From a virus, in IMG/VR virus record IMGVR_UViG_3300045988_162215: a DNA stretch of 64,000 bases, one strand, 5' to 3'. Positions within the stretch are counted from its first letter, which is position 1, and each line of letters starts with the position of its first letter. Positions 2,119-2,351 of the stretch are shown piece by piece. A program made the translations under genes and the position numbers. The notes below the pieces were generated by a model, which did no database searches, was not told the origin of the DNA, and saw only the letters and a list, made by a program, of their open reading frames with translations.

Positions 2119-2165
2119 TTATCCACAAAGTTATCCACAATTTCGGGATTGTAAATTGTGGATAA
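2119..2165. promoter_or_regulatory. DnaA-box cluster: three perfect TTATCCACA 9-mers (two direct at 2119-2127 and 2131-2139, one inverted at 2157-2165) forming a 14-bp inverted repeat around loop tttcgggattgta
   Basis: agTTATCCACAaagTTATCCACAatttcgggattgtaaatTGTGGATAAct. Confidence 0.6.
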
Positions 2166-2183
2166 CTTTTTTGAAAATTAGTC

Positions 2184-2213
2184 TTGACAAACCTGAGCCA
2201 TGTGTGGTATAAT
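2184..2213 (+). promoter_or_regulatory. plus-strand sigma70 promoter B (extended -10)
   Basis: cTTGACAaacctgagccatgtgTGgTATAAT. Confidence 0.7.
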
Positions 2214-2219
2214 ATTTCG

Positions 2220-2300
2220 GCCCGCGGCGATGGTGCGCGGCCCGCCCAGTATATCATATTTCATTCAATTTGTCAAGAGAAAAATAAAAATTTTTTCTAG
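2220..2300 (+). ncRNA. candidate small RNA B (homolog of A; 3' end uncertain)
   Basis: 5' hairpin 2218-2244 (cggcccgcg/cgcggcccg) with compensatory changes relative to A; no RBS. Confidence 0.45.
2248..2276 (-). promoter_or_regulatory. minus-strand promoter facing promoter B (TTGACA-17-TATACT)
   Basis: Reverse complement TTGACAaattgaatgaaatatgaTATACT. Confidence 0.55.
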
Positions 2301-2322
2301 GGTATTTTCATCTCAAAATTTC

Positions 2323-2351
2323 ATTATACCATAACTGCTGCGATATGTCAA
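2323..2351 (-). promoter_or_regulatory. sigma70 consensus promoter
   Basis: Reverse complement TTGACAtatcgcagcagttatggTATAAT. Confidence 0.6.

Follow-up and report, generated by a model that had tools for sequence, protein, structure and literature searches.

The region 2084-2392 of the viral DNA analysed here (a stretch of 64,000 nucleotides, hereafter the window) is an intergenic control region around one copy of a promoter cassette that points against its flanking genes. Because this copy, which contains promoter B, shares the promoter, the motif and the orientation of a family of counter-oriented cassettes, we assign it to that family, which is apparently a widespread, undescribed strong promoter unit making a short hairpin-capped RNA. 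Sequence comparison makes it likely that the DnaA boxes in B represent a lineage-specific retargeting of the operator shared by these cassettes, rather than the signature of a stand-alone origin. The element as a whole combines face-to-face promoters, an early-promoter cassette and a putative host-factor operator, all of which are of known kinds, and the cassette family itself is the most interesting outcome of the analysis.

The source phage and its early block

The window, with a GC content of ~32%, belongs to a tailed-phage genome and encodes a terminase, a portal protein, two giant proteins, an anaerobic ribonucleotide reductase (NrdD), a DnaE-type polymerase, a phage sigma factor and a Thg1-like enzyme. 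At the portal protein, identity is 63% with an unannotated human-faecal phage contig, 40% with the gut phage phAss-1 (OQ749652) and ~32% with 140-kb Enterococcus siphophages. The source is a large low-GC phAss-1-like gut siphophage, and the window is its early region. Clostridia (Eubacteriales) were predicted as the host of the phAss-1 phage group in the phAss-1 paper (PMC10607447), and the host of the present phage is probably also found in Clostridia. A megablast search of positions 1-8000 against GenBank phages gave zero matches, and a scan for tRNA and tmRNA genes found nothing.

In the early block (1-8600), ~20 tiny genes run leftward, and every one of them has a perfect TTGACA-17-TATAAT promoter to itself; 23 promoters within 9 kb match the consensus at 12 of 12 positions, and the early-gene promoters are of the consensus host type (sigma-A). 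Six perfect promoters run opposite to the leftward early genes, and four of them, A (9), B (2184), C (4743) and D (5717), have in common the extended layout TTGACAAA-N11-TGTGGTATAAT-N-TTTCGG with an 18-nt hexamer spacer. Four matches to this extended pattern were observed versus none expected from shuffled sequences, indicating that the layout is not due to chance. Whole tiny-gene units have been gained or lost between relatives (segments 1110-1315, 1517-1690 and 1910-2047 are missing from the relative L175), and the breakpoints of these gains and losses coincide with repeated promoter segments.

Organization of the control region

Four strong promoters fall inside 270 bp (Table 1), and promoter B shows no mismatch to the family string cTCTTGACAA-N11-TGTGGTATAAT-W-TTTCGG. 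The initial annotation had placed promoter B opposite a leftward promoter across a GC hairpin, an arrangement that we confirmed at 2184-2213, 2276-2248 and 2218-2244, with 34 bp separating the -10 hexamers of B and B'. The conserved flanking blocks that it listed are promoter parts only and not separate elements: atatttcgg is the discriminator and start of the plus-strand promoter, and ccaKtatatcatat and tttgtcaag are the extended -10 and the -35 of the minus-strand promoter.

Table 1 Coordinates of the control-region features and of the paralogous elements in the window
Feature	Position	Strand	Remarks
Leftward early promoter TTGACA-17-TATAAT	2084..2112	-	12/12 matches; divergent from promoter B; -35 end 6 bp from DnaA box 1
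DnaA box 1, perfect TTATCCACA	2119..2127	+	Within 12-nt tandem duplication; 3 bp from box 2
DnaA box 2, perfect	2131..2139	+	Within left arm of inverted repeat
DnaA box 3, perfect	2157..2165	-	Within right arm; reads TGTGGATAT (one mismatch) in L175
Operator-like inverted repeat, 14-nt arms GTTATCCACAATTT / AAATTGTGGATAAC, 9-nt loop	2130..2166		Arms 2130-2143 and 2153-2166
Promoter B, counter-oriented cassette promoter TTGACAAA-N11-TGTGGTATAAT	2184..2213	+	TTGACA-18-TATAAT, 12/12, TG extension
Conserved discriminator/start sequence ATTTCGG	2214..2220	+	Predicted start G2219 or G2220, from spacing
GC hairpin, 9-bp stem, loop GCGATGGTG	2218..2244		One C.C mismatch (2221/2241); predicted 5' end of both convergent RNAs
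Promoter B' TTGACA-17-TATACT, TG extension	2248..2276	-	11/12 matches; nose to nose with B; predicted start near 2241
AT-rich non-coding spacer (~78% A+T)	2277..2322		46 nt; weak hairpin AGAAAAAT...ATTTTTTCT inside
Second leftward consensus promoter	2323..2351	-	12/12 matches; reads into the element
Terminator hairpin of upstream leftward gene (2388-2576)	2369..2392	-	From sequence and repeat; right edge of control region
Paralogous element A	9..100		Cassette promoter 9-38 (+), GC hairpin 43-69 (8 bp, perfect), facing promoter 100-72; same layout as B
Paralogous cassette C	4690..4772	+	Promoter at 4743-4772, preceded by inverted repeat AAATTGCACAA...TTGTGCAAATT that carries the CACAATTTCGGGATTG motif
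Paralogous cassette D, promoter TTGACAAA-N11-TGTGCTATAAT-AGTTCGG	5717..5746	+	18-nt hexamer spacer

The GC hairpin was also considered as an intrinsic terminator, a reading that was rejected because 2218-2244 has no U-run on either strand and is absent from the terminator scan; the flanks that follow the hairpin are CCCAGTAT on the plus strand and GAAATATT on the minus strand. A mimic of a CRISPR repeat (type I-C-like) was likewise set aside, since the hairpins are missing what we take to be the 3' handle of that repeat. For the plus RNA of B there is no convincing terminator, and the molecule as a whole folds no better than shuffled sequences (z = -0.5). The spacer 2277-2322 is probably the 3' part of this RNA or the leader of the RNA from the promoter at 2351.

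The three perfect DnaA boxes described at 2119-2165 were confirmed; they span 47 bp and are the only perfect TTATCCACA copies in the whole 64-kb window. When one mismatch was allowed, 35 sites were found versus 21.5 +/- 4.5 in shuffles, and relaxed TTWTNCACA sites in 1-9000 beyond the three boxes occur only at 6981 and 7604. Boxes 2 and 3 form an inverted repeat, as the initial annotation had stated for all three; box 1 is not part of it and arises from a perfect 12-nt tandem duplication (AGTTATCCACAA twice, 2117-2140). The inverted repeat 2130-2166 folds at -23 kcal/mol (z = -5.3; other strand, z = -7.1), is preceded by an A-run and followed by a T6 run on the plus strand, and holds the family motif tttcGGGAT (2141-2149) ~39 nt ahead of the -35. 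The loop motif reported to be shared with the repeat upstream of cassette C was also recovered, with CACAATTTCGGGATTG exact at 2136 and 4696, and corresponds to the GGGAT region of the cassette family.

A family of counter-oriented cassettes

The exact promoter and start string TGTGGTATAATNTTTCGG was found in 39 IMG/VR stretches, which come from many contigs of 70-200 kb. Cassette copies were anchored on the -35, and those with <85% mutual identity were taken as distinct (n = 35). Their consensus is ctCTTGACAAa-N11-TGTGGTATAAT-w-TTTCGG, plus (G/A)GGAT ~39 nt upstream of the -35, and the parts of the cassette follow in the order inverted repeat, (G/A)GGAT, T-rich tract, promoter and short GC-rich RNA starting with a stem-loop. 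A repeat of the form TTGCACAA...GGGAT...TTGTGCAA lies upstream of many cassettes; its arms TTGCACAA/TTGTGCAA are present in A (as seen in the relative L082), in C and in most other copies, and in many copies, including C, A (L082) and phAss-1, they read aTTGCACAAa...tTTGTGCAAt and are bordered by A and T runs. From one cassette to another, the two arms change in concert (TGCACAA/TTGTGCA versus TCCACAA/TTGTGGA), so that the palindrome is preserved. In several cassettes one arm is retained while the other has decayed, which suggests sequence-specific recognition. The possibility that TTGCACAA is a genome-wide operator was rejected, as it is not enriched in the window outside cassette C, and a Pfam search with 21 tiny early proteins gave no DNA-binding candidate for the operator.

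The cassette opposes its flanking genes in all 33 distinct copies scored, and within 2 kb of these 33 cassettes, open reading frames with a ribosome-binding site add up to 790 aa on the same strand versus 14,457 aa on the opposite strand. Almost no cassette has a downstream open reading frame, and in many of them a terminator follows within 25-150 nt. Although the downstream RNAs share no sequence relationship, their GC content is high from the predicted +1 onwards, and most open with a hairpin. In phAss-1 there are two cassettes, one of them a face-to-face copy that has a GC stem. The idea that transcription from the plus-strand promoters drives DNA entry was rejected, given that the RNAs are short and that the phAss-1 cassettes aim at the nearby genome end.

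When B was examined for these family features, it showed all of them: the promoter and start string, the (G/A)GGAT motif with an inverted repeat, counter-orientation, no downstream open reading frame and a GC-rich 5' hairpin. Its inverted repeat fills the slot that is held by the TTGCACAA/TTGTGCAA repeat in A, C and many cassettes of other phages, and the sequence of its arms departs from the family norm, DnaA-box arms being found in B alone among the 35 distinct cassettes.

Rfam 15 gave no match in the window at the gathering score and sub-threshold noise only in 1-9000 at a permissive E-value, and no match was found for the cassette RNAs in 16 other cassette-bearing loci. The permissive hits on the palindrome were weak and miRNA-like only.

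Paralogues, relatives and conservation

Element A (9-100) proved to be a paralogue of B, in agreement with the proposal that B is a second copy of it. The operator upstream of A lies beyond the start of the window, and its repeat is visible in L082 at 3248-3290. Close relatives with the B locus are IMG/VR 3300045988_162434 (L001, L082), IMG/VR 3300045988_151163 (L002, L074) and ERZ808286 NODE-1427 (L175); L175 is the relative with ~85% identity, the short fragment L174 matches too, and a metagenome scan gave only two further relatives. A third face-to-face copy, Z, is present in L001/L082, L002 and L175, upstream of the point at which the window starts. A and Z match B in the arrangement of promoter, hairpin and AT-rich sequence and have no DnaA box.

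Conservation of the element in related phages, which the initial annotation had made a test of its proposal, was found: across the non-coding stretch 2113-2387, identity with L001, L002 and L175 is 92-100%, excepting the box-1 indel in L175, versus 65-74% for the adjacent gene (2388-2576) in the same relatives and 78-84% for other promoter and untranslated segments. Identity is 98-100% in the spacer 2277-2322 and 97-100% in promoter B'. This high non-coding conservation indicates strong purifying selection on the element, beyond the promoter hexamers. The DnaA boxes are retained in L001 and L002; L175 is without the 12-nt duplication, and hence box 1, and has TGTGGATAT in the right arm, leaving one perfect and one imperfect box, which indicates that the clade can do without the three-box state. 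The GC-hairpin element is absent from 44 more distant relatives that were retrieved via the Thg1-like gene.

The two strands of the B stem had been given as complementary; the hairpin does fold, but cggcccgcg is not the exact complement of cgcggcccg (C.C at 2221/2241). The stem is mismatched in two of the four B orthologues (the window and L001), and is a perfect 9 bp in L175 and a perfect 8 bp in L002. We aligned the hairpins of 13 elements (five A, four B, three Z and one from phAss-1) in one register. Standard pairs occupy 90.6% of the cells, compared with 25-50% when the partner column is slid, and three of the nine stem pairs show changes on both sides, with few independent evolutionary events, mainly the paralogues A/Z versus B/phAss-1, behind the covariation. 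One pair is G-C in A and Z versus C-G in B and phAss-1; another is C-G in Z versus G-C in B; and the third, at the mismatched position of the window and L001, is G-C in L175 versus C-G in L002. The GC palindrome has thus been kept in four sequence versions, one of them from phAss-1, which is only ~40% identical at the portal protein. These results bear out both the earlier observation that the stem differs between A and B and yet pairs, which extends to Z and phAss-1, and the suggestion that the hairpin is a selected structure.

A possible counter-transcription module under host DnaA

The explanation that we favour, at a confidence just short of even, is that B acts as a module of counter-transcription and promoter occlusion whose shared operator has been retargeted to host DnaA. 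In B, A, Z and one phAss-1 copy, the cassette is placed nose to nose with a leftward early promoter. With a spacing of ~7 nt from the -10, the plus RNA is predicted to start at G2219 or G2220 and the minus RNA near 2241; starts placed ~22 nt apart on opposite strands in this way would give RNAs that overlap by ~22 nt. The open complex of RNA polymerase spans roughly -55 to +20, and set against the 34-bp gap this span implies that B and B' would not be occupied together, so that one polymerase at a time would use the pair and mutual occlusion or interference would be expected. In Firmicutes, a 5'-terminal stem-loop protects RNAs from 5'-end-dependent decay. Both RNAs would carry the GC palindrome as a stem-loop at their extreme 5' end and might be stabilised by it; given that GC hairpins also open cassettes without a facing promoter, we assign the hairpin primarily to the cassette RNA.

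Convergent promoters that overlap face to face are known from IS10 (pIN/pOUT), phage P22 (Pant/Psar) and coliphage 186 (pR/pL). As in these pairs, B and B' are two strong facing promoters with transcripts predicted to overlap at their 5' ends (here by ~22 nt), interference is expected, and one product would be a short non-coding RNA bearing a stem-loop. Unlike in these pairs, the overlap in B covers no ribosome-binding site or start codon, the predicted starts are so close that the polymerase footprints must overlap, and the unit occurs at least three times per genome, in a multi-phage family with a conserved upstream operator.

The inverted repeat separates promoter B from the divergent promoter 2112-2084, a position that would make it a shared operator of both. 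Its arms would have been converted in B from TTGCACAA/TTGTGCAA to perfect DnaA boxes, and one arm would then have been duplicated with a 3-bp gap. A perfect 9-mer in both arms and one more copy 3 bp away can hardly have arisen by accident, which makes DnaA binding likely. The bound protein would lie 6 bp from the -35 of the 2112 promoter and 18 bp from that of B, upstream in both cases, from where it could activate or repress either, and the most likely consequence of its binding would be to couple the promoter cluster to the DnaA state of the host.

For the family as a whole, we entertain the more speculative and rather doubtful idea that the cassettes constitute an undescribed, widespread system of large gut Firmicutes phages, serving as an early-gene shut-off by counter-transcription or an antisense switch, as a source of structured effector RNAs (for example, anti-defence decoys) or as multiple RNA-primed origins, with B as the version in which host DnaA has been captured as input.

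Alternative readings of the DnaA boxes

The initial annotation offered two explanations of the element, a transcription-activated origin or a DnaA-titrating or DnaA-regulated switch, and of these the DnaA-regulated switch fits better. As an origin, it would have DnaA bound at 2119-2165 and transcription from B and/or leftward transcription open the spacer 2277-2322, whereupon the DnaE-type polymerase would extend an RNA primer, similarly to T4 oriF/oriG (a promoter with a downstream unwinding element) or to oriC with gidA/mioC transcription. The three perfect boxes, two of them 3 bp apart, the four strong promoters within 270 bp, the 46-bp spacer with ~78% A+T and 98-100% conservation, and the DnaE-type polymerase that the phage encodes are all consistent with this view, and a non-coding region much better conserved than the flanking genes, with an AT-rich spacer by boxes and promoters, would be expected of an origin too. 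We nonetheless regard an origin as unlikely. Paralogues A and Z share the layout without any DnaA box, the palindrome stands where the cassette family commonly has a non-DnaA repeat, and L175 keeps only one perfect and one imperfect box. The sequence 2000-2500 contains no DnaA-trios ((TAG/TAA)n), iterons are likewise absent, the sole tandem repeat being the box duplication, and the spacer lies 110 bp off, beyond two promoters and the GC hairpin. The GC skew has the same sign on both sides of 2.1 kb, with its cumulative minimum at ~8 kb, where the direction of transcription switches, and the polymerase gene is ~58 kb away in the window. Priming by an R-loop of G-rich RNA is disfavoured, since the 5' region of the RNA is palindromic and neither G-rich nor G-skewed. 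Elsewhere, the pattern of two direct boxes 3 bp apart and one inverted box was found in 74 IMG/VR stretches, in mixed contexts that include structural modules (for example, between scaffold and capsid genes) and with no consistent link to replication genes around these other clusters.

Two further readings would leave DnaA or its boxes without a transcriptional role. The boxes might be a sink or anchor that tethers first-entering early DNA to membrane-bound DnaA, or that titrates or re-charges DnaA (datA- or DARS-like) and so disturbs host replication, which we consider decidedly improbable. T5-like phages have pairs of DnaA boxes 3 bp apart in inverted repeats, within the untranslated injection-stop region of the first-injected pre-early DNA (bioRxiv 10.1101/866236), and the present phage is also a large siphophage with perfect boxes (1 and 2) 3 bp apart by an inverted repeat in non-coding DNA of an early block transcribed by host polymerase; in addition, the genome end that PhageTerm assigns to phAss-1 is less than 3 kb away from the cassettes of that phage. 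However, there are three boxes here rather than about eight in four repeats of a first-injected terminal repeat, they lie between divergent promoters, there is no sequence similarity to T5, and the function in T5 is itself a proposal. The DARS core of E. coli likewise comprises three DnaA boxes, of which I and II are opposed and 5 bp apart (PMC6868365), and the topology of two boxes in one orientation and one opposed is the same; unlike in DARS, 17 bp separate the opposed boxes 2 and 3, which belong to the promoter region of a phage whose host is probably related to Clostridium. The smaller number of boxes in L175 also argues against a sink or anchor. Alternatively, only the structure of the palindrome 2130-2166 might matter, as a hairpin that insulates or that terminates transcription in both directions, or else as a cruciform, resembling the A/T-flanked repeats of other cassettes and in the style of the terminator and promoter units (PeSL) of T4-like phages, the match to DnaA boxes being functionless. 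The strong stem on both strands (z = -5.3 and -7.1), the T6 after it on the plus strand and the A-run before it, and the co-variation of arms that keeps the palindrome in other cassettes agree with this, as does the PeSL-like gain and loss of gene cassettes at promoter repeats of the early block (PMC4122927). We rate it as quite improbable because a perfect 9-mer in both arms and a tandem third copy are very unlikely without selection for DnaA binding, 9-28-nt loops and AT-rich stems make poor terminators, the decay of one arm in several cassettes points to sequence-specific recognition, and there is no plus-strand transcription unit to terminate at this place.

Relation to other phage systems

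PeSL are composite terminator and early-promoter cassettes of T4-like phages (PMC2839356, PMC4122927). As with PeSL, the units described here are short repeated stem-loops with early promoters in a block of tiny variable genes, with gain and loss breakpoints at the promoter repeats, where recombination would presumably occur. They differ from PeSL in that they belong to another phage lineage and host and have no sequence relationship to them, and in that the cassette is counter-oriented, drives no gene and has a conserved start sequence and a GC-rich 5' RNA hairpin. Operators for host factors are known from the early regions of lytic phages in the form of the Spo0A boxes of phi29 and Nf (PMC2731898). 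Like these boxes, and like DnaA acting as a transcription factor at divergent promoters, the boxes of B would be sites for a host master regulator at early promoters and could tie phage development to the state of the host; the candidate regulator here is DnaA.

Large uncultured gut phages are known almost solely by their protein genes, and their regulatory logic is uncharted. The cassette is a conserved non-coding module that occurs in dozens of phage contigs and is constrained more than the neighbouring genes, and its defined promoter, start sequence and orientation rule make it directly testable. The copy with DnaA boxes suggests that an early promoter array may allow a lytic phage to read, or to tamper with, the replication-initiation state of its host, and it provides a link to the DnaA boxes of T5-like phages, which have long lacked an explanation, as well as to the 74 viral triple-box clusters. 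Clusters of DnaA boxes between divergent promoters recur in two large phage contigs (L123 and L127), and in L123 five boxes lie beside another face-to-face promoter pair with a GC-rich spacer.

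Predicted small RNAs of the cassettes

Cassettes C and D belong to the family of counter-oriented promoters found in the early block, and for both we predicted a short rightward RNA. The two predicted RNAs have CAGACCAAGTGTTCGAT in common close to their 5' ends and may be paralogous small RNAs; neither matched any family in Rfam. Upstream of the two cassettes lies a 39-nt repeat that contains the perfect palindrome AGTATTATAATACT, and similar sequence also adjoins cassettes at the IMG/VR loci L050, L067 and L082. In the region 6626-6800 (plus strand), promoter E, which lacks the start string TTTCGG, is followed by approximately 140 nt of non-coding sequence reaching the end of the Thg1-like gene, and this stretch may specify another small RNA.

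Features of the window (64,000 nt of IMGVR_UViG_3300045988_162215)
Feature	Position	Strand	Details
Predicted RNA of cassette C	4778-4895	+	Terminator at end
Predicted RNA of cassette D	5752-5825	+	Terminator at end
Promoter E	6626-6654	+	Sixth rightward consensus promoter; 17-nt spacer
39-nt repeat	4626-4664, 5590-5628		Two copies, 92% identical
Hairpin motif GCTTTAACGC(G/A)CTAAAGTG	4834-4860, 6127-6153, 6565-6591		Three copies, one inverted
Thg1-like tRNA-His guanylyltransferase	6795-7679	-	phrog_4717, E = 2.7e-82
Tad4 match	7716-8087	-	123 aa; Pfam Tad4 (type I Thoeris inhibitor), E = 9e-37
Two adjacent giant ORFs	24993-33608, 33617-40885	+	2871 and 2422 aa; structural region

Cassette RNAs were also predicted in other phage contigs. 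In one group (L052, L056, L058, L068, L075, L077 and L083) the RNAs start with GGGGCGCCACGTGCCTGATGAGCGCGACGATGCTC and therefore contain CUGAUGAG; when L052 was searched as a member of this group, neither a hammerhead nor any other Rfam family was matched at the gathering score. At four further loci (L054, L070, L071 and L072) a perfect GC hairpin of 9-10 bp, starting at +2, and the T-rich run after it make up nearly all of the predicted transcript, and thus a terminator-like hairpin stands almost directly after the promoter. One cassette-bearing phage contig carries a group I intron (L084, 751-1154, minus strand; Rfam RF00028, 73 bits).

Extent and gene content of the early block

In relatives the early block reaches further left than window position 1, and the operator of element A, the face-to-face promoter copy at the left end, is severed by the window start. 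In the relative L082, tRNA-like genes (1020-1250, minus strand) lie just past element Z, a third such copy located left of the window start. Whole tiny-gene units of the window (1110-1315, 1517-1690, 1910-2047, 3535-3806 and 3998-4515) are missing or replaced in L175, L001 or L002, and the breakpoints against these three relatives coincide with repeated promoter segments.

Judged by its Pfam match, the Tad4-like gene, which is situated at the early block's inner edge, appears to serve in anti-defence. Homologues of the neighbouring Thg1-like gene, at 42-80% identity, occur in 46 IMG/VR phage contigs, in most of which the 10 kb flanking the homologue is devoid of consensus sigma-A promoters.

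DnaA box triples in other viruses

The arrangement of DnaA boxes in cassette B was searched as three perfect boxes, two direct and 3 bp apart, then one inverted 8-38 bp away. This triple was found in 74 IMG/VR viral stretches (L086-L157) of widely varying GC content, among which several conserved groups were present; in the group at L125 it is flanked by the scaffold and minor-capsid genes, and in that at L099 it is close to an SSB gene.
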